The position numbers and the translations under genes were made by a program. Source: Arcobacteraceae bacterium (lineage in GTDB: Bacteria > Campylobacterota > Campylobacteria > Campylobacterales > Arcobacteraceae). Taken from it: a stretch of 64,000 bases of DNA. The stretch covers positions 138,327 to 202,326 of the forward strand of contig JBLWVX010000001.1 of assembly GCA_048268245.1 (NCBI GenBank), in the 5' to 3' direction. Positions 23,213 to 58,892 of the stretch are shown in pieces; position 1 is the stretch's first letter, and each line of letters begins with the position of its first letter. Below the pieces are notes generated by a model, which saw nothing but the letters and a program-made list of their open reading frames with translations, made no database searches and had not been told where the DNA came from.

Positions 23213-23266
23213 ATTATAAAATAAGTTTATAGCTTTGTTATAGCCCATAAATAGCTTTAATGTAGC
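23213..23266 (-). promoter_or_regulatory. Promoter with four 11-bp-phased GCTA repeats
   Basis: Plus-strand TATAGC 23228, TATAGC 23239, AATAGC 23250, TGTAGC 23261; -10 TATAAT (23218-23213) 9 nt away. Confidence 0.75.
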
Positions 23267-23271
23267 CATAA

Positions 23272-23303
23272 AAAAAGGGAAGAGTAAAAACTCTTCCCTT
23301 TTT
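23272..23303 (-). terminator. Intrinsic terminator after secF
   Basis: AAAAAGGGAAGAGT / ACTCTTCCCTTTTT inverted repeat with T-tail. Confidence 0.85.
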
Positions 23304-23323
23304 AAAATCAAAACCAAACTATA

Positions 23324-24292
23324 CTAAACTGTACCTTGCTCGTACATAGCTCTTAATTTATCTTTTTCTTTTTGTTTTTTTAATTTTTCTGCTTCTTTAG
23401 CTCTAAAATCATTTATTGAGAACTTTAACTGAACTAAGAAAGATGCAGCAATAAATATAGATGAATAAGTACCAACTACTACACCAATAAGCATTGTAAA
23501 TGCGAATCCATTGATAATTTCTCCACCAAATAAGTATAAAGTGATAACAACAAAGAATGTTGTTAATGAAGTAAGAGTTGTTCTTGAAAGTGTTCTACTT
23601 ACTGACTCATTTACAACCTTATCAAGAACTGTTTCTTTAGATGTTTGTACACCCTCTCTAATTCTATCAAATACAATAATGGTATCATTTAGTGAATAAC
23701 CAAGAATTGTAAGAATTGCTGCTAAGATGTCTAAGTTTACCTCTACACCCACAAGTGCAATAGCTCCTAATGCAATAGTAACATCATGTGCTAATGCTAA
23801 AATAGAAGCTACAGCAAATCTCCACTCAAATCTGAATGATACATATATTAAGATAACAATAAGAGATAAGCCTAAAGCCATTAAACCTTTTTCTCTTAAT
23901 TCATTACCTACTTTAGGTCCAACCATGTCAACTCTTCTTACTTCAAAGTTTCCAGTTGAATCTAAGATTTTATGCATCTCATCACCAATATCATTTGCTA
24001 AGTTAGAAGAAGTACCTGTAATTCTAATCACTACTTCTTGAGGACTACCAAACTCAGTAATAGATGAACCTTTATATTTAGTTTCATTTAATACATTTCT
24101 GATTTTATCAATAGGAGCTTTTTGCTCATATTGAACTTGAACTAAAGTACCACCAGCAAAGTCAATACCAAAATTAAGCCCTTTAGTAAATAGTATTACA
24201 AGTGAAGCAATAACAAGAATTGAAGAAATCCCTAAAAAAGGAAGTCTTTTAGCCATAAAATTATGTATTTTATCTGATTTAAAAAATTCCAT
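23324..24292 (-). CDS. secF: Protein translocase subunit SecF
   Basis: GIDFAGG, VGPKVG.EL, GYSLNDTIIVFDRIRE. Confidence 0.97.
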   Translation of the reverse strand: MEFFKSDKIHNFMAKRLPFLGISSILVIASLVILFTKGLNFGIDFAGGTLVQVQYEQKAPIDKIRNVLNETKYKGSSITEFGSPQEVVIRITGTSSNLANDIGDEMHKILDSTGNFEVRRVDMVGPKVGNELREKGLMALGLSLIVILIYVSFRFEWRFAVASILALAHDVTIALGAIALVGVEVNLDILAAILTILGYSLNDTIIVFDRIREGVQTSKETVLDKVVNESVSRTLSRTTLTSLTTFFVVITLYLFGGEIINGFAFTMLIGVVVGTYSSIFIAASFLVQLKFSINDFRAKEAEKLKKQKEKDKLRAMYEQGTV

Positions 24293-25857: not shown

Positions 25858-25934
25858 TCTTAATCCTTAGTAAGGTTTTTTTGATTTTAAAGATAAAACA
25901 TGTAAGAAACTTACATGTCTTAAAAAAAAGATTT

Positions 25935-26210
25935 TTAGTCTTCTATAAGTTTAGCTACGAACTCTCTGATTAATTTCATTTCAGTTCCATCGCTATTTTT
26001 TACTACAAAGTAGTCATCTTCTACTTTAGTAACTTCTACCATTAAGCCTCCATTTGTTACAATCTTATCACCTTTTTTAAGATTATTAACCATTTCCTTA
26101 TGCTGTTTAGCTTGTTTTTGTTGTGGTCTTATAATCAAAAAGTAAAAAATTGCAAATAATGCAACAAGGGGTAGTAATGAGCTTATTAAATCAGCACTTG
26201 AACCTTCCAT
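25935..26210 (-). CDS. yajC: Preprotein translocase subunit YajC
   Basis: FYFLIIRPQQK, LKKGDKIVT.GG. Confidence 0.95.
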   Translation of the reverse strand: MEGSSADLISSLLPLVALFAIFYFLIIRPQQKQAKQHKEMVNNLKKGDKIVTNGGLMVEVTKVEDDYFVVKNSDGTEMKLIREFVAKLIED

Positions 26211-26238
26211 CAAAATTCCTTTTCAAAAGTAGTTTAGT

Positions 26239-27471: not shown

Positions 27472-27484
27472 TTTAAATAAAAGA

Positions 27485-39195: not shown

Positions 39196-39591
39196 ATGAA
39201 AAGAAGAGAACCTTTAGGTTTAGACTTAACCCCAATCATAGATGTAGTTTTTATACTACTTTTATTTTTTATAGTAAGTTCTGTATTTAAAAAAGATGAA
39301 CTGGCTTTGATACTTGATTTGCCAAACTCAAATGCTAAAGAGTTAAAAGTAGATGAAGAACAAGTTTTTATAGAACTTAGTTCAAATAAACTTGCAATAA
39401 AAGGAATAGAAGTATCTTTTCAATCACTAGAAGATAATCTAAAAGCTATTGAAAATAAACATAAAGCTGTATTAGTTAGAATTGATAAAAAAGTTGAATA
39501 TCAACGAGTTGTGAAAGTTTTAGATTTACTTCAAAAATATGATTTAACAAATCTAGCACTTGTTACAAGTCAAGAAGAAAAAAAGGATTAA
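39196..39591 (+). CDS. exbD: ExbD/TolR family protein
   Basis: LTPIIDVVFILLLFFIV. Confidence 0.88.
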   Translation: MKRREPLGLDLTPIIDVVFILLLFFIVSSVFKKDELALILDLPNSNAKELKVDEEQVFIELSSNKLAIKGIEVSFQSLEDNLKAIENKHKAVLVRIDKKVEYQRVVKVLDLLQKYDLTNLALVTSQEEKKD

Positions 39592-39971
39592 TTTCCCTCT
39601 TCTTCTTTTTTTAATTGCTCATACTCTTCATCTGTAAAAATTCTAGACTTAGTTATAAACTGATAACCCATATCTATTTCAAGAGAAAAAGAGTTACCAA
39701 AAGCTGATTTTTCTTCTCTTACATCAATTGTAATAAAAGAGTGTCTAAAATATTCGAATTGGTCTTTATCTATAAAAAACTCACATCCACATATTTCACC
39801 AAGCTTTACATTTCTACTTGGCACATAAAAATCATCTTTTGCATAACACATAGGAGCTGTTCCATCACAACAACCACCACTTTGGTTAAATACTAATTCA
39901 CCATGTTCTTCTTGAAGTTTTTTGATTACGTCACAAGCTTCTTTTGTAACGTCTACTCTTTTTATTGCCAT
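39588..39971 (-). CDS. DUF779 family protein (aldehyde dehydrogenase-associated)
   Basis: QSGGCCDGTAPMCY and FSLE motifs; directly downstream of aldB. Confidence 0.9.
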   Translation of the reverse strand: MAIKRVDVTKEACDVIKKLQEEHGELVFNQSGGCCDGTAPMCYAKDDFYVPSRNVKLGEICGCEFFIDKDQFEYFRHSFITIDVREEKSAFGNSFSLEIDMGYQFITKSRIFTDEEYEQLKKEEEGN

Positions 39972-41644: not shown

Positions 41645-41698
41645 AGTTTACACGAGAAATATAGCGTGAATTTAGCCTAAGTATAGCCTGAATATAGC
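41645..41698 (-). promoter_or_regulatory. aldB promoter with four 11-bp-phased GCTAWA repeats
   Basis: Plus-strand TATAGC 41660, TTTAGC 41671, TATAGC 41682, TATAGC 41693; -10 TAAACT (41650-41645) 9 nt away. Confidence 0.8.
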
Positions 41699-41790
41699 AA
41701 TGTAGTTTTTTGACACAAAATCCCTAAAAATGGTGCTTTTATTACCTTTTTTTTCTTTGTTTTTTTTGATTTATTTGCTACAATTTTTTT

Positions 41791-43707: not shown

Positions 43708-44363
43708 AAATATTACTTTTAGAAGATGATATTATGTTAAATGAGATGATTACAGAATATTTAACTTCAACTGGTCATTCTATTACTAATACAACAAAAG
43801 GTGACGAGTGTCTAAATATTTTAGAAGAAGAAAAGTTTGATTTATTAATACTTGATATAAATGTACCAAATATTGATGGATTAACTGTTTTAGAGCAATT
43901 ACATGAAAAGAAAAGAATGATACCAACTATATTTATATCAGCACTTATTGATATTGAAGATATTGATAGAGCCTTTAATATAGGTTGTCATGATTATCTA
44001 AAAAAACCTTTTCACTTAAGAGAGCTAACACTTAGAATAAATAAAATTCTAAAAACAAATATTGCTCCACAAAAACATAAAAGGTTATCAAAAAACTATA
44101 GTTTTGATGCAGAGACTATGACTTTATATTTTAATAATGAGCCTCATATCTTACCTAAAAGACAACTTCAAATTATTGAATTACTAGCTCATAATAGAAG
44201 CTTAGTTGTACAATACGATATGTTTAGAACCTATGTTTGGAATGATGATTTTATAGACAATGCGACAATTAGAGCAGAAGTAAATAGAGTAAAAAAAGTT
44301 TTAAAAGAAGACTTTATTAAAAATATTAGAGGAAGTGGTTATATGGTTGAAAGACCAAACTAA
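43704..44363 (+). CDS. OmpR-family response regulator
   Basis: LLEDD, LDINVP, KPF...EL..RI, C-terminal winged helix I.NIRGSGY; overlaps the kinase stop. Confidence 0.92.
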   Translation: MKILLLEDDIMLNEMITEYLTSTGHSITNTTKGDECLNILEEEKFDLLILDINVPNIDGLTVLEQLHEKKRMIPTIFISALIDIEDIDRAFNIGCHDYLKKPFHLRELTLRINKILKTNIAPQKHKRLSKNYSFDAETMTLYFNNEPHILPKRQLQIIELLAHNRSLVVQYDMFRTYVWNDDFIDNATIRAEVNRVKKVLKEDFIKNIRGSGYMVERPN

Positions 44364-44372: not shown

Positions 44373-45242
44373 CTAAAACTTAATAGATACATAAAAGCTT
44401 AAATCAAACTCATTATCATCACTTAGAAAGTTGTTTTTTCTATACTCCACATAAGATGGTTTTGTTGTTGTTTCAAACTCACTTCTAGGTAACCATTCAT
44501 GATAAACCCAATGAATAAACTTTAAAACATCCCCATGTACTCCTTGCAAATCAAATCTAGCATAAACTCCATCAGCTATTTTAAAGTCAGGAAGTCTATC
44601 ACTTTTTACCTCTTCCTTTGTTTCAAGACAAGCAATATATTGACAATCATTTAAAGGAGTTATTGAAGGGTTATCATGAAAAAGCGCAATCTCTTTATAC
44701 TCTTTTATATCATTTGATAATCTCCAAACTTGCATTTTCTGCCACGCTTGTTTTATATTTATGTTATAACCCCTATTTCTAATATAGTATGCTTTTCTAA
44801 AAGGCATCTTTACAATGGTTGGTGTTATTTCATTAAAATTAGCTTTTGACTCCATGGCTTTGGGTGACTGTTGTAAAATATTGTTAGAGTATTCTTTATA
44901 TCCACCCTTTTTCCATTGTTTTGGAGTCATTTCAAATCTCTCTTTAAAAGTTTTAATAAAAGATGATTGAGAGGAGTATCCACACTCATTTGCAATTTCA
45001 GATATTGTTGAATATTTATTTGTAAGAAGTAAATTAGATGCTTTTTGTAATCTAATAGATTTGATACTCTCATAAATATTTTTTCCAAATGCTTCTTTGA
45101 ATATTCTATGCATATGAAATTTACTAATATCTAAATCAATACTAAGCTCTTCTATATCGATGTTTGTTTCAATATGAGTATAAATATAAAACATTATATC
45201 ATTGGCTATTTTTGTTCTTTTTTGTAGTGTCTCTTTTTTCAT
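44373..45242 (-). CDS. AraC family regulator with GyrI-like effector domain
   Basis: SKFHMHRIFK, IANECGYSSQSSF...FKERF.MTP; C-terminal HDNP, G.YA.F, WVY.EWLP; likely start 45242. Confidence 0.9.
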   Translation of the reverse strand: MKKETLQKRTKIANDIMFYIYTHIETNIDIEELSIDLDISKFHMHRIFKEAFGKNIYESIKSIRLQKASNLLLTNKYSTISEIANECGYSSQSSFIKTFKERFEMTPKQWKKGGYKEYSNNILQQSPKAMESKANFNEITPTIVKMPFRKAYYIRNRGYNINIKQAWQKMQVWRLSNDIKEYKEIALFHDNPSITPLNDCQYIACLETKEEVKSDRLPDFKIADGVYARFDLQGVHGDVLKFIHWVYHEWLPRSEFETTTKPSYVEYRKNNFLSDDNEFDLSFYVSIKF

Positions 45243-45382
45243 AAGATAGATTATAGCACAAATAAAATATAAAAGTAGCACTAACAAACAATTTTAACAG
45301 CACTTAAAAAGAAGAATTATTTCTGAATTTTTCATACAATAACTACAATTCAAATATAAGTAAGTATTTTAGGAAGAAAATT

Positions 45383-46050: not shown

Positions 46051-47184
46051 TCAAGCTTCTAAAAATGAAATAGAATTTTTTCTATTTCTGTAAAAAATCT
46101 TTTGATCGCTATAAGTTATACTATCTTGGATTTTTTGCGTAACAACTGCATGGTCAGGTGATTTAGAACACACAGGATCTGCAGCATTCATCTCTCCTGT
46201 TAGAGCAAAGGCTTGGCATCTGCAACCGCCAAAGTCTTTGTCTCTTTCATCACAAGTACGACAAGGCTCTTTCATCCAACTATCACCTCTAAAATAATTA
46301 AAGGCTTTTGAATCATACCATACTTCTTTTACAGAGTTTTCTTTTACATTTGGAAAATCTAAAGGTAAAGTATTTGCTGTATTACATGGAAGTGCAACCC
46401 CATCAGGATTGATAGTTAAAAAAGTAGTACCCCATCCATTCATACAAGCTTTTGGTCTATCAGCAAAATAATCAGGTACAACTAAAAATACTTTCATAGC
46501 ATCATCTTTTTGTCTATACTCATTTACTTTTGCTTTTGCTTCATCTAATTGCTCTTTTGAAGGAAGCAATGCATTTATATTTTTTAATGCCCAACCATAA
46601 TATTGAATATTTGCAATTTCTAAATAATTTGCCCCAAGAGTTTCAGCAAATTCAATAATCTGCCCTACTTGATGAATATTTTGTCTAGTAATACAAGTAT
46701 TAACTATAAGTTGAAGTCCTGCTTCTTTTACTTCTTTAGCAAAAGCAATTTTTTCTTTATATGAATTTTTATTGTTAGTAATTAAAGTCATAGTATTTTC
46801 ATCATGAGATTGAATACCTAACTGTACTGTTTTAAGGCCTGCATCTTTTAGTTTTTTTACTATTCCTTTTGGAGCACCAACACCTGATGTGATTAAATTA
46901 GTATAAAACTTTAAATCATTTGCTTTTTGAACTATATCAACTATATCTTTATTTAATAAAGGCTCTCCACCTGAAATACCAAGTTGAACAGCACCAAGTT
47001 CTCTAACCTCATCCATTACTCTAAACCAATCATCTTTGCTCATAGCATCTTTTGTATTTACAAAATCAAGTTGATTATAACAATATGAACACTCTAAAGG
47101 ACACTTATGAGTTAATTCTAAAAGTACCCATAAAGGGGGCTTTATATCTAGTTTCTCATTATTGTTTTTATCATTAATCGACAT
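46051..47184 (-). CDS. pqqE: PqqA peptide cyclase (radical SAM/SPASM)
   Basis: PPLW.L.ELTH.CPLECSYC, SGGEPL, QYYGWA, KACMNGWG, DFGGCRCQA; likely start 47184. Confidence 0.97.
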   Translation of the reverse strand: MSINDKNNNEKLDIKPPLWVLLELTHKCPLECSYCYNQLDFVNTKDAMSKDDWFRVMDEVRELGAVQLGISGGEPLLNKDIVDIVQKANDLKFYTNLITSGVGAPKGIVKKLKDAGLKTVQLGIQSHDENTMTLITNNKNSYKEKIAFAKEVKEAGLQLIVNTCITRQNIHQVGQIIEFAETLGANYLEIANIQYYGWALKNINALLPSKEQLDEAKAKVNEYRQKDDAMKVFLVVPDYFADRPKACMNGWGTTFLTINPDGVALPCNTANTLPLDFPNVKENSVKEVWYDSKAFNYFRGDSWMKEPCRTCDERDKDFGGCRCQAFALTGEMNAADPVCSKSPDHAVVTQKIQDSITYSDQKIFYRNRKNSISFLEA

Positions 47185-47443
47185 ACTGCACCCACTTTCT
47201 TTCAAATGCTTCATTAAAAAACGCTTCTATATCTTTTTCTAAACCAGACATTTCAAACTTTTTTTCTAAAGTTTCTACTATCTCATTAAAACTTTTTGTT
47301 CCATCACACTGGTTCATAATTTCACCAGCACTTTGATTTAACTGAACCATACCTTCAGGATACAATAATACAAAACAGTCTTGTGCTTTTTCAAATTGTA
47401 ATTGAAAGTGATTATTCACTACAATTAATTTTTCTTTGTGCAT
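47174..47443 (-). CDS. pqqD: PqqA-binding chaperone
   Basis: QFE.AQ...[16 protein letters not shown]...CDG. Confidence 0.95.
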
Positions 47444-48170
47444 CTTCTACCCCTTCTATATTAAAGTATGGAGGTTGTTTTAATTCATATGCTAGATATA
47501 AAGCATCACACATAGTCCATAAAATATCTAATTTAAATTGTAATATTTCACAAGCTTTACTTTGTAGTTCAACTGTATTAAACTCTTCTAAAGTTAATGA
47601 TAATCCATGTTGGACATCTCTTCTTGCTTCACTTAATCTTTTTTGGAAATATCTTAAACCTTTTGGTTCAATCCAAGGATAATTATCAGGCCAAGTATTA
47701 AGTCTTTGTTGATGAATTTCAGGAGCAAACATCTCAGTTAAAGATGACATTGCAGCCTCTTTCCAAGGTCTTTGTTTTGCAAAATTTATATATGCTTCAA
47801 CTGCAAACTTAACAGATGGTAAAACATATTTATGAGAAATTAAGTCCTGCTTATTTAATCCAACAGCTTCACCTAATTCAAGCCAAGCTTCAATTCCTCC
47901 ACCAACACTATCATGGTCAATAATTCTATCTATCCACTTTCTTCTATCTTCTAAAGGAGGATTATTTGACATGATTGCAGCATCTTTAATAGGAATTGCT
48001 GTTTGATAATAAAATCTATTTGCTACCCATCCTTGAATCTCTTCTTTTGTACATTCACCTTTATACATTCTAATATGAAATGGATGATGTATATGATACA
48101 TCTTACCCATAGCTCTTAATTTTTGTTCAAACTCATCTTTTGAAAGTAATTGGTCAATTTTTTTAGTCAT
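47412..48170 (-). CDS. pqqC: Pyrroloquinoline-quinone synthase
   Basis: [41 protein letters not shown]. Confidence 0.97.
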
Positions 48171-48186
48171 AATATTCTCTCCTTTA

Positions 48187-49104
48187 TTATATTTCTATAC
48201 TCATACCATCATAAGAAACTTCAATTCCATGTGAAATAAGCTCCTTATACTCATCACTACTCTCATCTAAGATAGGATTTGTATTATTTATATGAATTAG
48301 TATTTTTCTTGGTTTTTCTAAACTATCTAAAACTTTGATAAGTCCCTCTTCTCCACTTAATGGAATATGTCCCATATCAGTTCCAAGCTTATTTGAAAAG
48401 TTTCCTTTTATCATTTCATCATTTGTCCATAATGTTCCTTCTATTAAAAGAACATCTGCATTTCTCATTTCTTCAAATACATGGTCTTCCATAACACCAA
48501 GTCCAGGTAAATAAAATAGTCTTTTTCCTGTATTTTTATTTACAACAGTTATTCCTATATTATCACCCTTTCTAGGTTTATCTCTATACTCTGAGTATGG
48601 AGGTGCATTTGAAATTAATGCATGGGCATAAAACTCATAACTAGGCATTACAGGAATTTCAAATTTTGTAGTTGAATCTGGTAAGATTTCATGCCAGGCA
48701 GTTCCTCCACCATCCCAATGTTTTAGCATTTTCATAGTAGGAAATGATGTGTTTAATTCTTCATTTACTTCTTTTGTACAGTAAATTTGATGAGGACATC
48801 CCTCTCTTAACATAAGTAGACCTGTTGTATGGTCAATTTGTGCATCATTGAAAACAATAGCTTTTATTTTTGTTTCTCTTTTTTTAGTTGGGTGTAAAAA
48901 AGGGGAATTATGAATTTGCTCTAAAATATCTGGTGAAGTGTTAAATAAAACCCAGTTTTCACCATCTTCACTTATAGTAATAGAACTTTGTGTTCTTCTT
49001 TTAATAGTTTCTTTACCTTCTCTGTAACCCTTACAGTTATCACAGTTACAGTTAAACTGAGGAAGTCCTCCTCCTGCACCTGATCCTAAAACTTCTATTC
49101 TCAT
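48187..49104 (-). CDS. pqqB: PQQ biosynthesis protein B
   Basis: [39 protein letters not shown]. Confidence 0.97.
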
Positions 49105-49117
49105 AATCTTCCCTTAA

Positions 49118-49186
49118 CTCTTTTTATAATTAAGTCTATTTTAGACTTAATTATAAAAAGAGCAAACTAGCCGAAACTAGTTTACT
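49118..49186 (-). terminator. Tandem hairpins between pqqA and pqqB
   Basis: Perfect 21-bp stem CTCTTTTTATAATTAAGTCTA / TAGACTTAATTATAAAAAGAG (49118-49162) plus AAACTAG / CTAGTTT stem (49164-49183). Confidence 0.75.
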
Positions 49187-49197
49187 CAAATTAGGTT

Positions 49198-49308: not shown

Positions 49309-51099
49309 CTACTTATGTAATTTGAACACGTGTACTGAACCACCTTGGTTTAAAAGCTTAACAGCTTTTGCAACTTCACCACCCCATAAAGGAACGGCTC
49401 CACCCCAACCAGATACTACAGCAATATATTGCTCACCATTTTGCTCCCAAGTAATAGGAGAAGAAACGATTCCAGATCCAACATTAAATGAGTATAACTC
49501 TTTACCCGTTTCATCATCTAATGCTAAAAGTTTACCTTCTGGATTACCTGTAATTACTAAACCACCAGCAGTAGTTAAAACTCCACCCCATAATGGTGCT
49601 TTGTTTTTATAAATCCACTTAATTTTTCCAGTTACAGGATCAACAGCTTTGATAGCACCAATGTGATCTTCGTAAATAGGTTTAATAGTAAATCCAGCAC
49701 CTAAGTATGCTGCACCTTTTTTATAAGAAACAGGTTGATTCCAAATATCCATTCCCCACTCATTTGCAGGAACATAGAATAATCCAGTTTTTTGTGAGTA
49801 TGCCATTGGATTCCAGTTTTTCCCACCTAAGAATGAAGGTACTGAGAATACAGATTTACCTTTTTTCCCATTTACAGGAGCTCCAGGTCTATTATCTTCA
49901 TTTACTATAGGTCTACCATTTTCATCAATTCCTTTAGCCCATGTGATTTTATCAACAAAAGGAGTAGATCTGATGTATTTACCATTAACTCTATCTAAAA
50001 CATAGAAGAATCCATTTTTATCAGCAGTAGCACCGGCTTTTACAACATTTCCATTTTCATCTTTGTAATCAAATGGTATAAATTCAGCCATACCATCGTA
50101 ATCCCATCCATCATTTGGAGTAGTTTGGTAATGCCATACAACTTTACCAGTATCAGGATTTACAGCAACTCTTGAAGCAGTGTATAAGTTATCACCTTTT
50201 CTTAAGTGAGAATTCCAAGGTGCAGGGTTTCCAGTTGGAACATAAATTAAGTCTGTTTCAGGATCGTAAGTTACACCATTCCATGGAGCACCACCACCAT
50301 GTTTCCAAGTATCACCTTCCCAAGTAGCATTTAAAGTACCAGTAATACCATTTTCTTTACCATTTAAGTATCCCATATGTCCTTCAACCATTGGTCTAGT
50401 CCATATTAATTTACCTGTATTTGGGTTTCTAGCCTCTACTTTACCAACAACACCAAATTCACCACCAGATACACCAGTAATTAACATATCTTTTACGATA
50501 AGCGGAGCAGCTGTAAATGAGTACCCATCTTTATACTTAGCAATTCTTTTTTTCCATTTAACTTTACCAGTCTTTCTATCAAGAGCAACTAGTTTTGCAT
50601 CAAGTGTTCCAAAAATAACTAAATCACCATATAATGCAGCACCTCTGTTAATAACATCACAACAAGGTAAAATTGCATCAGGAAGTCTTGCATCATATTG
50701 CCATAACTCTTCACCAGTTAAAATATCAATAGCAAAAAGTCTAGAGTAAGAAGCAGTTACATACATAACTCCATCTTTAACTACAGGTTGAGACTCTTGT
50801 CCTCTTTGTTTTTCCCCACCAAAACTAAAGTTCCATACTGGAACTAAATCTTTAATTGTGTCTTTGTTGATTTGAGTTAATGTTGAGTATCTTTGACCTT
50901 TTGGTCCTAAACCATAACTAACTACATCACCAGGTGTTTTTGCATCATTTACGATTTCATCATATGTAACTGGTGCAAATGATGGTTTTGTAACTTTTGT
51001 TATGCTATTATTTTCTGTGTTGCTAGACATAGCACATCCACTAATTAGTGCAGCTAGTGTAACGGCAACTGCACTAGTTAGCAATCTATTCTTATTCAT
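49309..51099 (-). CDS. pedH: PQQ-dependent alcohol dehydrogenase, lanthanide-type (PedH/ExaF-like), predicted lipoprotein
   Basis: [12 protein letters not shown], vicinal [31 protein letters not shown] (D-x-D), [18 protein letters not shown]; lipobox ISGC. Confidence 0.88.
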
Positions 51100-51151
51100 C
51101 TTCTCTCCTTCTTAATTTTGATAACAAACCTGAAAAATTTGTCTGAAAAGA

Positions 51152-51183
51152 AGTATACATAAGAAATATAGCCTCAGTTTAGC
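51152..51183 (-). promoter_or_regulatory. pedH-pqq promoter
   Basis: Minus strand GCTAAA-N5-GCTATA (51183-51167)-N9-TATACT (51157-51152). Confidence 0.8.
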
Positions 51184-51961
51184 TATGATTTACTTTTTTA
51201 GATTTAAAACCTACAAAGGCCATTATTAGGGTTATTACTAAAGAAATTAGCACAATTATTAAAGAGTTTGCATCAATTTTTAGATATAAAGTAAATCTTA
51301 TAGACTCAACTATATAAGTAAATGGATTATAAGATGATATATTAAATAAAATAAGTGATGAATCTTTTATTTTCCATAAAGGATATAAGGCACTACTTAA
51401 GAAGAACATCGGAAAAATCACAAAGTTCATTACTGTAGCAAAGTTCTCTAACTGTTTAATTACAGAAGAAATAAACAGTGCAAATGCATTTAGTATTATT
51501 GAAGAAATCATAATAATTGGAATTGTTGCTAAAATAGCTAAAAAAGATATATCAACCCCATAAACTTTTGCAATGAGTAAAAAAGTTACCGCTTGTATTG
51601 TAGATACAATTGCTGTTGCAAACATCTTACAAAAAAGTAAATAGTTTCTATTGATATAAGAAGATAGTAAAATTTTCATACTTCCCATTTCTCTATCAAA
51701 TATCATAGTAAGACTACTTTGCATACCATTGAAAAGTAAAACCATTCCAACAAGTCCTGGGACTATGTATGTTTCATAAGTGATATATGTTTCATATGGA
51801 GGAATAATAGCTAAACCTAAAGCCGTTTTAAAACCCACTGAGAAAATAAATAACCATAATAAAGGTCGCACTAGAGCTGAAAAAAATCTACTTTTTTGTT
51901 TTACAAATCGAATTAACTCTTTATAGATAATTCCTTTCATACAATTTATATAAATATTCAT
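51179..51961 (-). CDS. ABC-2 type permease of PQQ-ADH systems (PedC-like)
   Basis: RFFSALVRPLLW, PPYETYITYE.YIVPGL, FNGMQSSL, QLENFA.VMNFVIFPMFFLSSALYPLW. Confidence 0.88.
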   Translation of the reverse strand: MNIYINCMKGIIYKELIRFVKQKSRFFSALVRPLLWLFIFSVGFKTALGLAIIPPYETYITYETYIVPGLVGMVLLFNGMQSSLTMIFDREMGSMKILLSSYINRNYLLFCKMFATAIVSTIQAVTFLLIAKVYGVDISFLAILATIPIIMISSIILNAFALFISSVIKQLENFATVMNFVIFPMFFLSSALYPLWKIKDSSLILFNISSYNPFTYIVESIRFTLYLKIDANSLIIVLISLVITLIMAFVGFKSKKVNHS

Positions 51962-51964
51962 CTT

Positions 51965-52687
51965 TTACCTTACTATTTGATTGAATGTATCAACCAAGTT
52001 ATCTTTTTCATACTTTTTAACAATATCTTTTACAATTCCAGACTCTACTATCTCACCTTTTTTAATAAATGATATATCATCATCTTCTTTTACTTCATCA
52101 AAAAGATGTGTAATCCATAAAACACTTAAGTTTTCTCTTTTTACTAAATCTCTAACATAATCTAAAATATCAAATCTACTTTTTAAATCAAGCCCAACTG
52201 TAGGCTCATCTAAAAGTAATAGCTTTGGTTTATTTATCAAAGCTCTCAAAATTTCAACTCTTCTTCTATGACCACCATTTAATTTTCTAGCAGTAATATC
52301 TAGTGAATCCTGTAATTCAAGCCTTACTATTTCATTTTCTACAGATTTTATAGTATCTTTAAAACCTAAACCTTTAAGTGAACCATAATAATAAAGATTT
52401 TGTCGTACGGTTAAATCTAAATCCAAAGTTGGTTCTTGAAAAACAATACCTATATCTTTTAAGGATTTTGAATAATTTTTTATTGAGTGTTGATTTATAT
52501 TTATAGTTCCAACTTCAAGTTTTAGAAGTCTAGTAATTAGTGAGAATACTGTAGATTTTCCAGCTCCATTTAGTCCTAGCAGAACAGAAAAACTGCCCTG
52601 CTTTATACTAAAAGATATATTATTTAATACCTTTTTAGATCCATAAGAAAAATCTACATCTTTTAATTCTAAGATATTTTTTTCCAT
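51965..52687 (-). CDS. ABC ATP-binding protein of PQQ-ADH systems (PedB-like)
   Basis: GLNGAGKST.FSLITRL, PTLDLDL, LNGGHRRRVEI.RAL, LLLDEPTVGLD. Confidence 0.9.
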   Translation of the reverse strand: MEKNILELKDVDFSYGSKKVLNNISFSIKQGSFSVLLGLNGAGKSTVFSLITRLLKLEVGTININQHSIKNYSKSLKDIGIVFQEPTLDLDLTVRQNLYYYGSLKGLGFKDTIKSVENEIVRLELQDSLDITARKLNGGHRRRVEILRALINKPKLLLLDEPTVGLDLKSRFDILDYVRDLVKRENLSVLWITHLFDEVKEDDDISFIKKGEIVESGIVKDIVKKYEKDNLVDTFNQIVR

Positions 52688-52689
52688 GA

Positions 52690-53649
52690 TTATTTACTTG
52701 GGATTACTGCTAAGCCCCAAGGGTATCTTCCAACTTGAATAGTTTTCTTAACTTTTAAAGATTCTACATCAATAACAGAAACATCACCACTTACACCATT
52801 TGTAGTATAAAGTTTCTTTTCATTATTTGCAAAATCAAGCATCCAAACTCTACTTCCAACTAATAAGTATTTGATTACTTTATATGTCTTTGCATCAATT
52901 ACAGCTACATGATTTGCAGGTCCTAAACCAACAAAAGCATATTTACCATCACTTGTTAATTTAATACCAACTGGTTGAATTAAATCTTTAAAGATTCCAG
53001 GAATTTTAAAAGAAATCTTTGAAAGTGGCTCTTTAGTTTTTGTATCTATAACCATTACAGTTCCACCAATTTCACTTGATGCCCAAATTTTATCACCACT
53101 TTTTGTAAATTCAATATGTCTTGGTCTTTGATCTACTAAAGTATTATGAACAATCTTTTTAGTTTTTGTATCAATCCAATGTAAAAAGTTTGATGTTTCT
53201 GATGTATTAATAGCTATTGATCCATCTGGACTTACAGCCATACCCTCAGGCTCAATACCAACTTCTATTTGAGCAACTACATCTTTTTTTTGAACATCTA
53301 CAACTGTTACAATTCCATCATCTTCATTTGATATGTAAAGTTCTTTACCATCTGGATGTAAAGCAAATTGTTCTGGATCTTCACCTGATGGAAGGCTATA
53401 TAAAATTTCACCAGTTTTTGTATCCATAGCTTGAACTGTATCATCATCACTTGCACAAATATATAGTTTTGAATAATCTTTTGTAAGTAGAATTCCTCTA
53501 GGTCTTTGACCAACCTCATAAGTTTTTATAACTTTATCTGTGTTTGAATCTATAACAGTAATAGTATTATCTTTCTCATTTGAAACAAAAATAGTATCTG
53601 CTAGTAAACTTGTTGATAATAATGCAGATGCTAATAATAATCTCTTCAT
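52690..53649 (-). CDS. YVTN beta-propeller of PQQ-dependent catabolism (PedA2-like)
   Basis: Signal peptide; VSNEKDNT, VGQRPRG, LPSGEDPE, VG.EPEG, SSEIGG, GPANHVAV, VGRYPWG. Confidence 0.88.
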   Translation of the reverse strand: MKRLLLASALLSTSLLADTIFVSNEKDNTITVIDSNTDKVIKTYEVGQRPRGILLTKDYSKLYICASDDDTVQAMDTKTGEILYSLPSGEDPEQFALHPDGKELYISNEDDGIVTVVDVQKKDVVAQIEVGIEPEGMAVSPDGSIAINTSETSNFLHWIDTKTKKIVHNTLVDQRPRHIEFTKSGDKIWASSEIGGTVMVIDTKTKEPLSKISFKIPGIFKDLIQPVGIKLTSDGKYAFVGLGPANHVAVIDAKTYKVIKYLLVGSRVWMLDFANNEKKLYTTNGVSGDVSVIDVESLKVKKTIQVGRYPWGLAVIPSK

Positions 53650-53678: not shown

Positions 53679-53710
53679 ATTGTATAAGATGTTTATAGCC
53701 TGAGTTTAGC
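53679..53710 (-). promoter_or_regulatory. Promoter of the beta-propeller/ABC operon
   Basis: GCTAAA-N5-GCTATA (53710-53694)-N9-TACAAT (53684-53679). Confidence 0.8.
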
Positions 53711-53825: not shown

Positions 53826-54242
53826 TTATTTTACAATAAAAGTAGCTCTTTCTCTATCACTTTTAGCTGATGGAAGACCTAATGTATAAGTACCTGGTTT
53901 AATAGGGATAAAAGTAAGTTCAATTTCACCCTCATCATCAAATTCAAAACTATCAATTCCTAATGGTCTTACTTCAATATCATTGATAGATACTTGATTA
54001 ACCCAAATATTTCTAAAAAATTCAGGACCTACAATAGGCACTTCTCTTGAACCATCACTTTTTAATACTAATTTATAGTATTTACCTGCTTTTAAATTAT
54101 AAGGTTTATCTGCCAAAGTTTTACCTGCACCAATTGTAATAGGCTCTAAAGTTGTTCTTGAATGTAATAAGCCCTTTATATTTGCAAAAGCAAACTCAGC
54201 TGTTAAAATTAACATAATTGCAACTGTTAAAAATCTTTTCAT
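53826..54242 (-). CDS. Exported cupredoxin-like protein lacking copper ligands
   Basis: Signal peptide; L.AGKYY.L and ELTFIP.KPG.Y strands; acidic FEFDDEGE; no Cys, and the single His is outside the ligand region. Confidence 0.6.
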   Translation of the reverse strand: MKRFLTVAIMLILTAEFAFANIKGLLHSRTTLEPITIGAGKTLADKPYNLKAGKYYKLVLKSDGSREVPIVGPEFFRNIWVNQVSINDIEVRPLGIDSFEFDDEGEIELTFIPIKPGTYTLGLPSAKSDRERATFIVK

Positions 54243-54269: not shown

Positions 54270-54345
54270 ATTGTAATTAATAATTATAGCCTGAGTTTAG
54301 CGATGTTTTTTTTGCTAAACTTAGGCTATAAATCTTATGTATACT
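54270..54345. promoter_or_regulatory. Divergent promoter pair with GCTAAA-N5-GCTATA boxes
   Basis: Minus: box 54301-54285, -10 TACAAT 54275-54270. Plus: box 54314-54330, -10 TATACT 54340-54345. Both spacers 9 nt. Confidence 0.8.
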
Positions 54346-54370: not shown

Positions 54371-55519
54371 ATGAGACTATTACCATTATTACTTATATTT
54401 GCAACTTTTCTAAATGCAAATATACTAGAAGTAAATATTTTATACCTAGAGCAGAAGATCAAAAAGCCACCAGTATTATCAAATGTTATAGAAGACCCAG
54501 ATGATTTAGGACTAAAAGGTGCCCAAATAGCCATAAAAGACAGCAATAAAAGCGCAAGGTTCTTAAATCAAAAATACAATTTAGTAGAGGCTATTTCTTA
54601 TAAAAAAGAAGAGCTTATTAGTGCCTATGAGAAGTTTATAAATGAAAACAATAGCTATGTTATTTTAAATGTAGAAGATGATTTATTAAAAGAACTTTTA
54701 ACAAATAAACTTGCTTCAAAGACTCTTTTTATTAATGCAAAAAGTCAAAACTCAAATCTTAGAAAGAACTATTGTCAAGATAATCTTTTACATACTATAG
54801 CAAGTAATGCTATGTTATATGATGGATTGGTACAATTTTTAGTAAAAAGAGACTTTAAAGACATCTTTTTAATTAGTGGAGAACATGAAAAAGATTTACT
54901 TATTAAAGAAGATATTAAAAGATCTATTAAAAAATTTGGTGCAAAAATTGTAGAAGAGAAAGTTTGGGATAATAATAGTGATATTAGAAGAAAAGCAAGT
55001 ACTGAATTTCCATCATTCACACAAGCTTCAAAATATGATTTAATATTACTTGCAGATTATCATGGAGACTTCGGTGAATTTATGTATTTTAATACTTGGC
55101 TTCCAAGACCTGTTGCTGGAACACAAGGTTTAACACCTGTTACATGGCATAAAGTTATTGAGGCTTGGGGAGCTGCGCAAATGCAAAGTAGATTTGAGAA
55201 GTTCTCAAATAGATGGATGCAATCTCTTGACTACTCAAACTGGGTTGCAGTTAGGTCAATTGTAAATGCACTAACTCATACAAAAACAGCAGATTTAAAA
55301 ACAAATATTAAATATATTTATTCAAAAGAGTTTGAACTTGCAGCATATAAAGGAAGAAAACTTACTTTTAGAGACTATAATGGACAATTAAGAATGCCTG
55401 TAGCATTAATTCAACCAAGAGCCTTAGTTTCAACTTCTCCACAAGTTGGATTTTTACATCCAAAAACTGACTTAGATACTTTAGGTATTGCACCATTTGA
55501 AATGGAGTGTAAAAAGTAA
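54371..55519 (+). CDS. LIV-fold substrate-binding protein of PQQ-ADH systems (PedA1-like)
   Basis: GAQ.AI.D.N...RFL.Q, LLHT, KKFGAKIV.EK.W, PRPVAGT.GL.P..WH...E.WGAAQ.Q.RF, YKG.KL.FR...GQLR, SPQ.GFLHP...LDTLG. Confidence 0.85.
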   Translation: MRLLPLLLIFATFLNANILEVNILYLEQKIKKPPVLSNVIEDPDDLGLKGAQIAIKDSNKSARFLNQKYNLVEAISYKKEELISAYEKFINENNSYVILNVEDDLLKELLTNKLASKTLFINAKSQNSNLRKNYCQDNLLHTIASNAMLYDGLVQFLVKRDFKDIFLISGEHEKDLLIKEDIKRSIKKFGAKIVEEKVWDNNSDIRRKASTEFPSFTQASKYDLILLADYHGDFGEFMYFNTWLPRPVAGTQGLTPVTWHKVIEAWGAAQMQSRFEKFSNRWMQSLDYSNWVAVRSIVNALTHTKTADLKTNIKYIYSKEFELAAYKGRKLTFRDYNGQLRMPVALIQPRALVSTSPQVGFLHPKTDLDTLGIAPFEMECKK

Positions 55520-55974
55520 TGAAAAAGCTAATACTTCTTTGTACAATGATTTGTTTTTTAAATGCAAACTACAAGATTGTCGAAAATGAAAATCTTTTTA
55601 GTGTAAAAATAGAAAATGAAAATTTCCAAGAAGTATTAGTAAACCTAAAAGATGAGATAGGTTTTCAAGGTTTTGTGATTGTACATGAACTAAATCTTGC
55701 AAAATCCACATCAAATGTAGCAAAAGCTTTAAAACAAAATGCTGTTTTAACAAATGGAGTGAATCTACTTATGTGTAAAAGTAGTTTTACTTTAGAAATG
55801 ATTCAAGAAAACCCTTCAAATATTACTTATTGTCCTTTAGGTATCTCTGTTTATGAAGTTAAAAATGAAGTTTTTATATCTTATAAGAAATATCATAAAT
55901 TAAACTTTGATGATAAGATTTTTGAAGAAGTAAATGAGAAGTTAAAAAATCTAATATTAAAGAGTTTGGATTAA
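55519..55974 (+). CDS. DUF302 family exported protein
   Basis: GF.IVHE.N, L.C......M, YCPLGISVYE. Confidence 0.75.
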   Translation: MKKLILLCTMICFLNANYKIVENENLFSVKIENENFQEVLVNLKDEIGFQGFVIVHELNLAKSTSNVAKALKQNAVLTNGVNLLMCKSSFTLEMIQENPSNITYCPLGISVYEVKNEVFISYKKYHKLNFDDKIFEEVNEKLKNLILKSLD

Positions 55975-56369
55975 TATTTCCCAAACTCTTTGTAAGTACC
56001 ATTATCTAAAAGTAAATATACTGTTTTTACTTCTTTATCATTTTCATATGAAGGAAGTGAAAGTCCCATTGAACCTTTAGGGATATTTCCTAGAAACTCT
56101 TTCATAGCTTTTGCTGGAACATTTCCTTCAAATACATAATCTTTAAAAATTGTTGTATTACATGATTGAACCTCTCTTGGAACACCAACACTATATTTTA
56201 AACCTTTTACATTTACCATTTGTACTATTTCAACTTCATCGGCTATTTTTTTCATATCATCTAACCAAGATTTAGGACAAGTACTTGTCATAGGTTGGAA
56301 AATCTGCATTTTACTCTCACTTGCAAATACTGCAAGAGCTAGCATTAAACTTAAAACTATTTTTTTCAT
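55971..56369 (-). CDS. DUF411/CopG-like periplasmic protein with altered metal ligands
   Basis: LK..VGVP.EVQSCNT....YVFEGNVPA..M..FL......GLSLP matches the DUF411 pattern SCHT...EGHVP with His to Asn. Confidence 0.7.
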   Translation of the reverse strand: MKKIVLSLMLALAVFASESKMQIFQPMTSTCPKSWLDDMKKIADEVEIVQMVNVKGLKYSVGVPREVQSCNTTIFKDYVFEGNVPAKAMKEFLGNIPKGSMGLSLPSYENDKEVKTVYLLLDNGTYKEFGKY

Positions 56370-57064
56370 ATTTCTCCTTTTAATATATTTGGGTATATCT
56401 CAAACATTTCATTTTTTACCTCATCAACTCTTCGTTGATTGGCTTTTCTGTTTGTATTATTGTCGAATTCTAAAATTGTAGTTGCAGGATTTTTTGATAA
56501 AAAGAAAATCCTATTTGAAAAGTATATTGCTTCACTTAAATCATGAGTTACTAAAACAACTTTTGGAGTAAACTTTTCACACAGTTTTAAAAACTCCTCT
56601 TTTAACTGCATAGCCGTTGGATAATCTAGTGAAATAAAAGGTTCATCTAAAAGTATAAGTTTAGGTTCATTTATAAAAGCTCTTATTAAAGCCACTCTTC
56701 TTTTCATTCCCCCTGATAAAGAGTTAGGATAGAAATCTAAAACTTCTTCTAAATTTATAAGCTTTAAAAACTCTTTGATTTTATTTTCATCTTTATTTTT
56801 TGAAACTAATAAAAGATTTTCTTTTATAGTTAACCATGGTATTAATCTATCATCTTGAAACATAAAAGATATTTCATCACTATCTTTTTTTACTTCTCCA
56901 ATATAATTATCATCTAATGATGCTAAAATATTTAAAAGTGTTGTTTTACCACATCCTGATGGACCTATTATAGATATAAACTCACTTTTTTTTAGACTTA
57001 TATTTATATCTTTTAAAACAGTTTTTTCTTTATAACTTTTGTTTTCAATACAAATTTCTAACAT
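56366..57064 (-). CDS. ABC ATP-binding protein, NitT/TauT type (LutE-like)
   Basis: GPSGCGKTT, FQD.RL.PW, LSGGMKRRVAL, LDEPF.SLD. Confidence 0.85.
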   Translation of the reverse strand: MLEICIENKSYKEKTVLKDINISLKKSEFISIIGPSGCGKTTLLNILASLDDNYIGEVKKDSDEISFMFQDDRLIPWLTIKENLLLVSKNKDENKIKEFLKLINLEEVLDFYPNSLSGGMKRRVALIRAFINEPKLILLDEPFISLDYPTAMQLKEEFLKLCEKFTPKVVLVTHDLSEAIYFSNRIFFLSKNPATTILEFDNNTNRKANQRRVDEVKNEMFEIYPNILKGEI

Positions 57065-57065
57065 A

Positions 57066-57803
57066 CTATTTCCATTTATTTATATATAAATCTATTGGTT
57101 TTAAAAATAGTTTTTCGATTAAAAGTATTACTAATACAAAAGCAAATGAATAAGCTAATATTGAAGTAATATCAAAAAACTGAAAAAACATAGAAATCTT
57201 AAAACCTATTCCATCACTTCTTCCAAGAAGCTCAACCACTAATACAATTTTCCAAATCAAAGATAAACACAGTCTTGTAGAAGCCATAATATAAGGATAA
57301 ATTTGAGGTAAAAAAACTTTGAAAAAAGTCTCTTTATTTGAAACTTTATATACTTTTGCTAATTGCATATATTTTCTATCAATTGCTTTTGTACCTTCTC
57401 TTACATTTACTATTACTATTGGAAGTTTATTTAATATTACGGCTAAAAGTGCAGCAAAATCTGTAAGTCCAAACCAAATATAACAAATAACAATTGTTAC
57501 AAGTGCTGGAATATTTAATCCAAGAATTAAAATAAAATCAAAAATATCATCTATTTTTTTAGACACTCCCATTAAAATACCAAAAACGATACCAAGTAAC
57601 ATAACTACAAAAAAACAAACAAATACTCTATATAAAGTAATTCCTAAATTATAAAGTAAATCTGAATTTATAGTATGATCATATAAACTAGTACCTATTT
57701 GAGTAATAGATGGAAAAGTCAAGCTTGATATAAAAAAAGCTGTTACTTCCCAAATACCTAAAAAAGCTATTATTGATATGATTCTAATATTTTTATTTAG
57801 CAC
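57066..57803 (-). CDS. ABC permease, NitT/TauT type (LutF-like)
   Basis: LNIPALV.I..CYIWFGL, NK.P, REG, L.WKIVLVVELLGRSDG.GF. Confidence 0.85.
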   Translation of the reverse strand: MLNKNIRIISIIAFLGIWEVTAFFISSLTFPSITQIGTSLYDHTINSDLLYNLGITLYRVFVCFFVVMLLGIVFGILMGVSKKIDDIFDFILILGLNIPALVTIVICYIWFGLTDFAALLAVILNKLPIVIVNVREGTKAIDRKYMQLAKVYKVSNKETFFKVFLPQIYPYIMASTRLCLSLIWKIVLVVELLGRSDGIGFKISMFFQFFDITSILAYSFAFVLVILLIEKLFLKPIDLYINKWK

Positions 57804-57815
57804 TTTTTACTCTTC

Positions 57816-58775
57816 TTACTTTTCAAAATTCCAAAAAGTTTTTTCATCTAAGCTTTTAGCATTTGAAAGCAAGTTTTTTCCACCCTCATTTAAAAGTATT
57901 TCAAATACTTTTTTTGAATCTTCTATATTTTTAGATGAAAACTCTTTTATTATTCCTTCTTTAAAGCCTTCCTTCAATGATAAGAAAACTTTTTCATCTT
58001 TTGCTTTCATAAGAGGTCTTATTCTATCCCACTCTTTTTCATCTGATAAAAGGATATCTTTTGCCTCATGACTAGCTTTTATAAATGAGTTATAAAGCTT
58101 TTTATTTTTTAAAGCAACATCTCTTCTAAATGTCCATCCAATTAATGAAATATCTTCTTTTACACCTAATTGTTCTAAAATATCACTCATTTGTATTAGT
58201 GCTTTTGCATCTTTTGCTTTTAGTTTTGCATTAAAATGCCAAAAATTAATAGCACTATTTAATGAACCATCTAATATCTTTTTATACAAGATAACTGGAC
58301 TTGCAAATACAGGAGTTATTAAATCTTTTAAATCTTTTCCATGCTTATATTTACTGTATGCTCTTAAAAGTAACCAACTTTTATCATAAGGTCCACCTGC
58401 AACTCCAAGCTTTTGACCCTTTAAGTCTAAAAGTGTTTTGGCATTTTGCTTTGTATATATTGTACCTGTAGCTTTTGAATATGGATAAAAAGTAAAATCT
58501 TTTCCATTTGCCCTTTGAGTATTTACCCAAAGCCAATCAGTAACTATCATATCTACAGAGTCAGCTTGTATTGCAACAGATGAAGCATTTTTTGAAGCAA
58601 GTTTTAAAACTTCTAAATCAAAACCATACTTTTTATCAAGTTTATTATATTTGATTACATCAAGTTCCCAGTTAACTGTTCCATAAGCTAAAACACCTAC
58701 TTTTAATTTATCTTCTGCATTAACATTTATAATACTTATTATTGTTATTAATAGTGCTACTAAAAATTTAATCAT
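57816..58775 (-). CDS. ABC substrate-binding protein, NMT1/TauA fold (LutA-like)
   Basis: GVL.YGTVNWELDVIK, IVTDWLWV, PYS, GVAGGP.DKSWLLL, NFWHF.AKL; likely start 58775 (RBS GGAG). Confidence 0.75.
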   Translation of the reverse strand: MIKFLVALLITIISIINVNAEDKLKVGVLAYGTVNWELDVIKYNKLDKKYGFDLEVLKLASKNASSVAIQADSVDMIVTDWLWVNTQRANGKDFTFYPYSKATGTIYTKQNAKTLLDLKGQKLGVAGGPYDKSWLLLRAYSKYKHGKDLKDLITPVFASPVILYKKILDGSLNSAINFWHFNAKLKAKDAKALIQMSDILEQLGVKEDISLIGWTFRRDVALKNKKLYNSFIKASHEAKDILLSDEKEWDRIRPLMKAKDEKVFLSLKEGFKEGIIKEFSSKNIEDSKKVFEILLNEGGKNLLSNAKSLDEKTFWNFEK

Positions 58776-58806
58776 GTATTTTTTCTCCAAAGCTTAAATA
58801 TCAAGT

Positions 58807-58892
58807 ATTGTATAGGAGTTTTATAGCATGAATTTAGCGAAAAAAGCTCTATTTTTAATCGCTATAATCAGGCTATAAAAAGTGTTTATAAT
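58807..58892. promoter_or_regulatory. Divergent promoter pair with GCTAWA-N5-GCTATA boxes
   Basis: Minus: box 58838-58822, -10 TACAAT 58812-58807. Plus: box 58861-58877, -10 TATAAT 58887-58892. Both spacers 9 nt. Confidence 0.8.

Follow-up and report, generated by a model that had tools for sequence, protein, structure and literature searches.

A 64,000-nucleotide (nt) stretch of the genome of an Arcobacteraceae bacterium (GCA_048268245.1, contig JBLWVX010000001.1, positions 138,327 to 202,326; hereafter the window, with positions counted from its first letter) contains eight promoters built on one 32-nt pattern, GCTAWA-N5-GCTATA-N9-TANANT, in which a 17-nt box of two directly repeated hexamers precedes, at a constant distance, a -10 hexamer predicted from sequence. 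The G+C content of the window is 28%, and NCBIfam and Pfam searches revealed a ped/exa-type cluster that includes a pyrroloquinoline quinone (PQQ) alcohol dehydrogenase of the methanol/ethanol family. The finding proved real and has strong support; the regulon is new, its mechanism is ordinary, and the FIST-fused histidine kinase is its most interesting part. The box is quite likely the binding site of the phosphorylated OmpR/PhoB-family regulator encoded at 43704-44363, partnered by the FIST kinase encoded at 41791-43707, while we infer from these sequences where transcription starts, what the signal is, and that the genes are activated and not repressed. The literature searched contained no description of such a regulon, in agreement with the preliminary description of this DNA, which had presented it as not known to be described.

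A phased direct repeat over the -35 region

The preliminary description had placed the pattern at eight promoters, with a spacer of exactly 9 nt and the repeats occupying the -35 region. All eight sites were found at the coordinates it gave (Table 1), and 100 dinucleotide-preserving shuffles of the window yielded a mean of 0.00 and a maximum of 0 matches. The hexamer starts are 11 bp apart and the N9 spacing is present at 8/8 sites; taking the -10 hexamer as -12 to -7 puts the repeats at about -38 to -22. The longer coordinates that had been reported for the xdhC-like and aldB promoters correspond to extra upstream hexamers in the same 11-bp phase, giving four hexamers at each (23228-23266 and 41660-41698). 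All eight sites are oriented toward a gene, with 16-73 nt between the end of the -10 hexamer and the start codon; in the 16-nt case, the second ATP-binding cassette (ABC) system, a better ATG is situated 15 nt downstream, and the binding protein of that system likely starts at ATG 58775. The -10 hexamers are of the housekeeping TAnAAT/TAnACT kind. A scan of the window for TTGACA-N16-18-TATAAT returned 88 sites against 113.5 in shuffles, with none of the eight box promoters among the best 60 of the 88; we regard such a consensus scan as uninformative in an AT-rich genome, apart from the apparent lack of a -35 hexamer at the box promoters. When hexamer pairs at spacings of 0-30 were counted over the whole genome, spacing 5 gave 13 pairs (10 in the window) and the remaining spacings not divisible by 3 gave 0-4, leaving spacing 5 alone enriched among the non-multiples; multiples of 3 were raised by GCT-AAA codons.

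The specificity of the motif was borne out across the genome to which the window belongs (G000; 2,681,560 bases in 57 contigs), where the full pattern occurs in 8 copies, 8/8 of them in the window, and the 17-nt box alone in 11, nine of them in the window. A position weight matrix (PWM) built solely from the sites of other genomes and applied to 5,359,586 positions of G000 ranked the window sites at the top, with 32-41 bits for seven of them and 20.2 bits for the XdhC-like site. The best positions elsewhere were C10:73873 (23.7 bits) and C9:46369 (22.2 bits), frames overlapping the xdhC and aldB arrays reached 17.4 and 16.3 bits, and beyond these none of the scored positions exceeded 14 bits.

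The box is also conserved in relatives. The exact pattern was found in 15 of 41 related genomes, almost always clustered within ~30 kb of the kinase orthologue, and the reversed pattern in none of the 41. A sample of 28 Arcobacteraceae loci (11 named, the other 17 from G-numbered genomes) gave 90 relaxed matches, of which 82 precede a gene homologous to one of the ped, pqq or aldB genes of the window. The boxed homologues encompass the dehydrogenase, the beta-propeller, both binding proteins, pedF, a 138-amino-acid (aa) protein and aldB, and in some genera the box also stands before pqqB, pqqC, pedB or a second dehydrogenase. The proteins encoded downstream of conserved boxes are only 52-97% identical; the box is kept before orthologous genes in many genera, and the flanking sequence diverges. 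Upstream of the dehydrogenase, the box and the -10 hexamer are retained in 12/12 aligned Arcobacteraceae sequences, including those with a different gene upstream, the hexamer columns being invariant. Positions that the pattern leaves unconstrained are conserved as well, namely position 8 (T in 92/98), position 10 (A in 85/98) and position 30 (A in 91/98). Among 138 unique boxes (at most one mismatch) from the 28 loci, TANANT follows at exactly N9 in 82; the next commonest spacing, N7, accounts for 20 and may reflect overlapping TATATA runs, and every other spacing for at most 4. In five complete or near-complete relatives, most copies of the box alone are at the cluster or the xdhC site (9/10 in G001, 9/11 in G002, 6/9 in G010, 6/6 in G021 and 6/6 in G022).

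Four genomes (G004, G007, G017 and G019; 98-100% complete) gave no match to the PQQ dehydrogenase and retain DUF779-aldB, the box, the kinase and the regulator as one divergent module. Genomes without the dehydrogenase keep the box at aldB; therefore, aldB is the core target, and the box follows the two-component pair rather than the ped genes. The aldB site is the most widely conserved of all box sites, and aldB is probably the ancestral or minimal target. The earlier proposal of a regulon linking both ABC systems and the small periplasmic proteins to the dehydrogenase holds up computationally, but its conserved core is aldB, not the dehydrogenase. In G017, a second exact site precedes pta.

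The regulator, its kinase and competing explanations

Three regulatory genes are situated between aldB and pqq, encoding the kinase, the response regulator and an AraC-like protein. The FIST domains of the kinase scored 130 bits (PF08495) and 71.5 bits (PF10442). Without a hydrophobic segment (maximum 19-residue Kyte-Doolittle mean of 1.11), the kinase is predicted to be cytoplasmic; its match to the NosP family NF041558 is weak (63 bits, cut-off 450), and neither a receiver nor an Hpt domain is present. In the response regulator, D8, D9, D51 and K101 are invariant among the aligned orthologues, and the recognition-helix stretch IDNATIRAEVNRVKK occurs in five of six aligned orthologues from six genera, the sixth having IDIATIRAEVNRVKK, with one substitution. 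The best solved relative was DrrD (1kgs, E 3e-27).

Orthologues of the regulator, defined by at least 72% identity and standing beside the kinase wherever inspected, were identified in 76 of 151 Arcobacteraceae genomes (14 of 22 genera), and the exact pattern in 66 of the 151. At least one exact pattern was present in 61/76 regulator-positive genomes versus 5/75 regulator-negative ones, and at least two in 50/76 versus 1/75. Altogether, 262 of 269 copies belong to regulator-positive genomes and 7 to regulator-negative ones, and the reversed pattern gave 0 in all 151.

These observations are consistent with a mechanism in which two regulator molecules would bind head to tail to hexamers 11 bp apart on one helix face and would help RNA polymerase to start where the -10 hexamer is good but no usable -35 exists. 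At the aldB and XdhC-like promoters, a second dimer would occupy the two additional upstream hexamers. Nine units would be switched jointly, i.e., the eight of the window and an unlinked NDH-2-like gene, covering alcohol oxidation (the PedH-like dehydrogenase and pedF), the cofactor (pqqA and probably pqqBCDE), transport, and aldehyde oxidation (aldB), with the two ABC systems and the small periplasmic proteins within the regulon. The eight units first proposed are thereby retained, with pqqA, probably pqqBCDE, and the NDH-2-like gene making the putative regulon larger. The logic of the pathway would run from alcohol to aldehyde to acetate, with the cofactor, the electron acceptor, transport and NADH re-oxidation attached, and the signal is probably a cytoplasmic cue of alcohol/aldehyde metabolism sensed by the FIST domain.

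Several points weigh against this interpretation. The exact pattern is absent from 15 of the 76 regulator-positive genomes (G007 lacks it through a variant -10, TAAGAT) and present in five of the 75 regulator-negative ones, with three copies in G258 (91% complete). Kinship among the genomes means that they are not independent, and the co-occurrence counts therefore exaggerate the support and are descriptive only. A paralogous regulator (C3:95816-96481, 63% identical) carries the same IDNATIRAEVNRVKK stretch. Contigs from RNA libraries (four runs; relatives 90-99% alike) cover the dehydrogenase gene and are uninformative on starts, strand and level; one of them (50567-51247) spans the dehydrogenase promoter. 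Repressors, too, classically bind over the -35 region, and the -35 element is generally poorly conserved in Campylobacterota according to excerpts of PMC7755780, so that a missing -35 is weak evidence for activator dependence.

The same regulator and box could also serve repression, the regulator occupying the -35 region and blocking RNA polymerase until the signal releases it, and a box at about -38 to -22 is compatible with such occlusion. We consider this unlikely, given the good -10 hexamers with no -35-like hexamer at any of the eight promoters (none was among the best 60 of the 88 scanned sites) and the extra phased hexamers upstream of aldB and xdhC, which fit cooperative recruitment. 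Promoters of the pho-box class are activated. Those with the same geometry as the window sites are argued to be activated by PceP in the text excerpted from PMC7755780.

A second FIST-kinase/OmpR-regulator pair is located on another contig (C3:95816-98385, loci L112/L129), its proteins being 52% and 63% identical to the window pair. Its neighbours are UPF0102, aminotransferase and pyruvate kinase genes, and the same neighbours flank the aldB-linked copy in G017 and G007; the C3 locus may represent the ancestral site, from which aldB has since been lost. With a recognition-helix stretch common to paralogue and orthologue, the C3 regulator could bind the same boxes, and the paralogous pair might be the real or an additional binder, with two sensors converging on the boxes in this genus. 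The chance of this appears small, since paralogue-level kinase matches (46-52% identity) were restricted, among the matches listed for the 41 genomes, to G000-G005, G010 and G032, while the box is present in many genera without a paralogous kinase. Moreover, the paralogue-only genomes G005 and G032 contain loose boxes at background level (1 and 5), none of them of the GCTAAAyTyAGGCTATA type. A search for a site of the paralogue's own, with the hexamer at spacings of 0-30 in direct, inverted and everted orientation, showed only codon periodicity.

The AraC/Rob-like neighbour (44373-45287) might also bind the box, as one molecule with two helix-turn-helix motifs reaching grooves ~11 bp apart. 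The asymmetric 20-bp sites bound by Rob and MarA overlap the -35 at some promoters, and the AraC-like gene adjoins the regulator in G000-G004, G010 and G022. However, orthologues with 67-75% identity are found in G005, G006, G013, G014, G015 and G016, all of which lack the exact pattern; the best match is remote from the cluster in G017 and G021; none turned up in G023, an 85% complete genome with 7 patterns; and in G007, G017 and G019 the box accompanies the kinase/regulator pair with no AraC-like gene in the locus. Two near-identical hexamers, and arrays of four, also fit identical binding domains better than the two different ones of the AraC-like protein, which makes its involvement very unlikely. 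Finally, the fixed distance to the -10 hexamer would suit a -35-side element for an alternative sigma factor in place of a transcription-factor site, an idea we find barely credible in view of the housekeeping-type -10, the extension of the direct repeat to three or four phased copies, the absence of a sigma-factor gene among the 32 window proteins scanned, and the tracking of the response regulator by the box.

Units of the putative regulon and neighbouring features

Table 1. Positions, strands and annotation of the box promoters, the genes they precede and related features; positions are those of the window unless a contig (C) or locus (L) is named.
Feature	Position	Strand	Remarks
XdhC-like gene, 323 aa	22211..23182	-	weak XdhC_C Rossmann match, 31.1 bits; NF045664 36.8 bits, cut-off 350
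XdhC-like gene promoter	23213..23266	-	exact site 23213-23244; GCTACA, GCTATT, GCTATA, GCTATA (phased), N9, TATAAT
DUF779 gene	39588-39971	-	PF05610
aldB/exaC acetaldehyde dehydrogenase	40075-41571	-	NF050026 ExaC 828.6 bits, under the 900 cut-off
aldB promoter	41645..41698	-	exact site 41645-41676; GCTATA, GCTATA, GCTAAA, GCTATA (phased), N9, TAAACT
Sensor histidine kinase, 638 aa	41791..43707	+	FIST_N and FIST_C fused to HisKA and HATPase_c (Pfam)
OmpR/PhoB-family response regulator, 219 aa	43704..44363	+	receiver PF00072, winged helix Trans_reg_C PF00486
AraC/GyrI-like (AraC/Rob-like) regulator	44373-45287		adjoins the response regulator
pqqB, pqqC, pqqD, pqqE	46051..49104	-	TIGR02108, TIGR02111, TIGR02109
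Terminator-like hairpin between pqqA and pqqB	49160..49187	-	12 pairs, then a T run
pqqA, 24 aa	49198-49272	-	directly 3' of the dehydrogenase gene, read from sequence
PedH-like PQQ alcohol dehydrogenase	49309-51099	-	TIGR03075, 783 bits
Dehydrogenase promoter	51152..51183	-	exact site; box overlaps the 3' end of pedC
pedA2-like beta-propeller, pedB ATPase, pedC permease	51179..53649	-	TIGR03866, TIGR03864, TIGR03861
Promoter of the beta-propeller/ABC operon	53679..53710	-	exact site; top PWM score, 40.9
138-aa secreted (periplasmic) protein	53826..54242	-	no Pfam family
Promoter of the 138-aa protein	54270..54301	-	exact site; back to back with the pedA1-like promoter, 12 nt apart
Promoter of the pedA1-like binding-protein operon	54314..54345	+	exact site
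PQQ-system ABC substrate-binding protein (pedA1-like)	54371-55519	+	TIGR03863, 422.6 bits
DUF302-like protein	55519-55974	+	PF03625, weak
NMT1/THI5-like binding protein (weak match), permease, ATPase, DUF411 protein	55971..58790	-	second ABC system
Promoter of the second ABC system	58807..58838	-	exact site; back to back with the pedF promoter, 22 nt apart
pedF promoter	58861..58892	+	exact site
pedF cytochrome c550, SBP_bac_3 protein, SoxYZ-like carrier, relay-system metallohydrolase	58925..61857	+	TIGR04494, TIGR04557, TIGR04558
Box before the NDH-2-like Pyr_redox_2 gene (400 aa)	C9:46369-46385 (L110)		box GCTATATATGGGCTATA upstream
~400-aa secreted protein, copies in relatives	L014:4502-5686, L016:91-1290, L020:386-1579, L063:2308-3510		61-86% mutual identity

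Within the cluster, TIGR03075, TIGR03861, TIGR03863, TIGR03866 and TIGR04494 scored above their cut-offs, and TIGR03864 (pedB ATPase) scored 282.6, under its cut-off of 302.25. The solved chains nearest to the dehydrogenase are 6zcw and 6zcv, both PedH (E 9e-255), ahead of ExaA (1flg). The protein has a D-Y-D stretch (peptide DGWDYDGM), and according to excerpts of PMC5487730, PedH carries Asp at the position of Ser295 in PedE; dependence of the window dehydrogenase on lanthanides may be expected on this basis. The window comes from a marine Arcobacter, the nearest named record being Arcobacter sp. YIC-464 with a 97% identical dehydrogenase. Identity to proteobacterial dehydrogenases is 62-71%, which suggests horizontal acquisition of the cluster. 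pqqA would ride on the dehydrogenase promoter, and pqqBCDE are probably read through from there: the PWM scan of G000 showed no own box before pqqBCDE, whereas some other genera have one at pqqB or pqqC. In some relatives, a second PQQ dehydrogenase (628 aa, 53% identical) has a box of its own (L017:5420, L106:14168), and two dehydrogenases may be under one regulator there. The dehydrogenase leader also contains an inverted repeat, ACAAA-N9-TTTGT (51124-51142), situated 3' of the -10 hexamer and 5' of the ribosome-binding site. Most of 12 relatives retain this repeat, two of them with changes that appear to compensate each other, and it may serve as another operator or form a weak hairpin in the leader. 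A hairpin proper was not retained as a candidate, as the consensus RNA structure had 0 pairs and the pattern occurs 4 times in the window against 3.4 expected.

Two labels of the preliminary description, "lutA-like" for the binding-protein gene of the second ABC system and "cupredoxin-like" for the 138-aa protein, serve as leads only. The former corresponds to a weak NMT1/THI5-like match, and the latter to look-alike clusters named "copper-binding protein" and, in a few cases, cupredoxin. Orthologues of the 138-aa protein with their own box (80-87% identity) are present at L017, L060, L098 and L106. A secreted protein of ~400 aa, with no Pfam family, has its own box in the ped clusters of four other Arcobacteraceae genera; no homologue was found in the G000 genome. 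It may be a porin, like that of the Pseudomonas cluster.

On the aldehyde side, the aldB box is located within the divergent region common to aldB and the kinase/regulator operon, its four-hexamer array lying ~80 nt upstream of a TACAAT that precedes the kinase gene, and autoregulation of the kinase and regulator from this array is possible. That TACAAT (in 41779-41793) is the sole -10-like hexamer before the kinase gene and ends 6 nt before the annotated ATG, with no ribosome-binding site; either the kinase mRNA has no leader or translation starts at another codon. The xdhC-like site has the weakest PWM score of the eight; besides G000, it was seen only in G001-G003, which are of the same genus. 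The XdhC-like gene, followed at its 3' side by ~600 nt of non-coding DNA, is apparently monocistronic.

Outside the window, the box at C9:46369 is also present upstream of NDH-2-like orthologues in G002, G023 and G024 (three genera), and the NDH-2-like gene is probably the ninth member of the regulon, unlinked to the window. At C10:73873-73904 (L128), ACTATATTCATGCTATA-N9-TATTAT precedes a gene for a 113-aa FeS_assembly_P (DUF59-type) protein at a contig end. The box at C12:37184-37200 (L111), before a Pyr_redox_3 gene, was not counted as a member, having no -10 at N9 and being found in the same genus only. This box lies directly 3' of a TATAAT and 26 nt before the gene, in G001 as well, a position that would suit repression. 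Elsewhere in the window (11794-13929, minus strand), a 711-aa protein combines the archaeo-eukaryotic primase of TOTE conflict systems with a helicase (PF22548, ResIII, Helicase_C) and is a candidate defence gene unrelated to the box.

Significance and likeness to known systems

Arcobacteraceae are abundant in marine, wastewater and animal-associated habitats, and no regulatory data for this pathway were found in the literature searched. The regulon described here provides a testable wiring diagram of their alcohol and aldehyde oxidation, consisting of one kinase, one regulator, one 17-bp box and nine promoters. It ties genes of unknown role to the pathway, namely the second ABC system, the DUF411, DUF302, DUF779 and 138-aa proteins, the XdhC-like protein and the NDH-2-like oxidoreductase. 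The box and its regulator are also a possible alcohol-responsive expression switch for AT-rich bacteria, and the kinase offers a simple one-protein system for learning what a FIST domain senses. We tentatively suggest that its FIST domain might be a cytoplasmic sensor of alcohol/aldehyde catabolism (aldehyde, redox or haem state), that the link between FIST and alcohol might be ancient and general, and that Arcobacteraceae might have placed an acquired lanthanide-type ped cluster under a minimal aldB switch with the same box at every unit; if so, the nitric-oxide role of NosP would be only one face of FIST function.

The regulon matches the pho-box-like class in its receiver/winged-helix regulator, its 11-bp repeats and their fixed distance to the -10 hexamer over the -35 region. 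In E. coli, PhoB binds the pho box as a head-to-tail dimer, the two 11-bp direct-repeat units replacing the -35 at a fixed short distance from the -10, and stronger promoters have more boxes upstream. The pho box differs from the window box in hexamer sequence, signal and kinase type.

Within Campylobacterota, the PceS/PceP system of Sulfurospirillum is similar in several respects. In PMC7755780, electrophoretic mobility shift assays (EMSA) and differential RNA sequencing (dRNA-seq) are reported for PceP, an OmpR-family regulator that binds CTATA/CTATW direct repeats with 6-nt gaps. At most of eight transcription units these repeats overlap the -35, and PceP is argued there to be an activator. 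The pceA promoter in G205 and G046 reads TCTATA-N5-CCTATA-N5-GCTATA-N9-TATCAT, a geometry equal to that of the window box, and the window sites share with the pceA and TCS2 promoters repeats of the CTATA type, phased by 11 bp over the -35 region. Both systems come from the same taxonomic order and have an OmpR-family regulator and eight transcription units of one gene region, with one intergenic site shared with the regulator's own operon. However, PceP and the window regulator are just 24-26% identical, too little for a close relative; PceP is therefore an analogue in mechanism and site, not an orthologue. Near pceA, no match at E 1e-25 or better was found, nor any kinase match in the 80-kb region. 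In addition, PceS is described in the excerpts of PMC7755780 as a seven-helix membrane kinase that has a periplasmic domain, whereas the window kinase is cytoplasmic with FIST domains. The Pce site is read there as CTATW-N17-CTATW, the copy between the two being assigned to sigma, in contrast to the conserved unit of two adjacent hexamers in the window. The pathways also differ, being organohalide respiration in the former and alcohol/aldehyde oxidation in the latter.

When compared to Pseudomonas, the ped/exa genes are the same, i.e., the PQQ dehydrogenase, pedA1, pedA2BC, pedF, aldB/exaC and pqq, as listed in excerpts of PMC12997753. The same source describes a FIST-type (NosP-like) protein, PP_2663, beside the kinase PedS1, and LuxR-type regulators, AgmR/PedR1 and PedR2/ExaE, in several layers; in Acinetobacter EmaSR, EmaR is likewise LuxR-type according to excerpts of PMC9603970. 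The FIST protein of Pseudomonas is a separate polypeptide beside a hybrid kinase, whereas in the window it is fused to a non-hybrid kinase. The NosP-NahK pair differs in the same way, NosP being free-standing and acting on a separate hybrid kinase, in contrast to the fusion of FIST to HisKA and HATPase in the window. Among the 32 window proteins scanned, no LuxR-type domain was found, and the sole response regulator is OmpR-type. One kinase, one OmpR-type regulator and a single box at every unit stand against the layered LuxR-type control described for Pseudomonas in PMC12997753 as excerpted, so that a common set of ped genes would be under unrelated regulators in different phyla.

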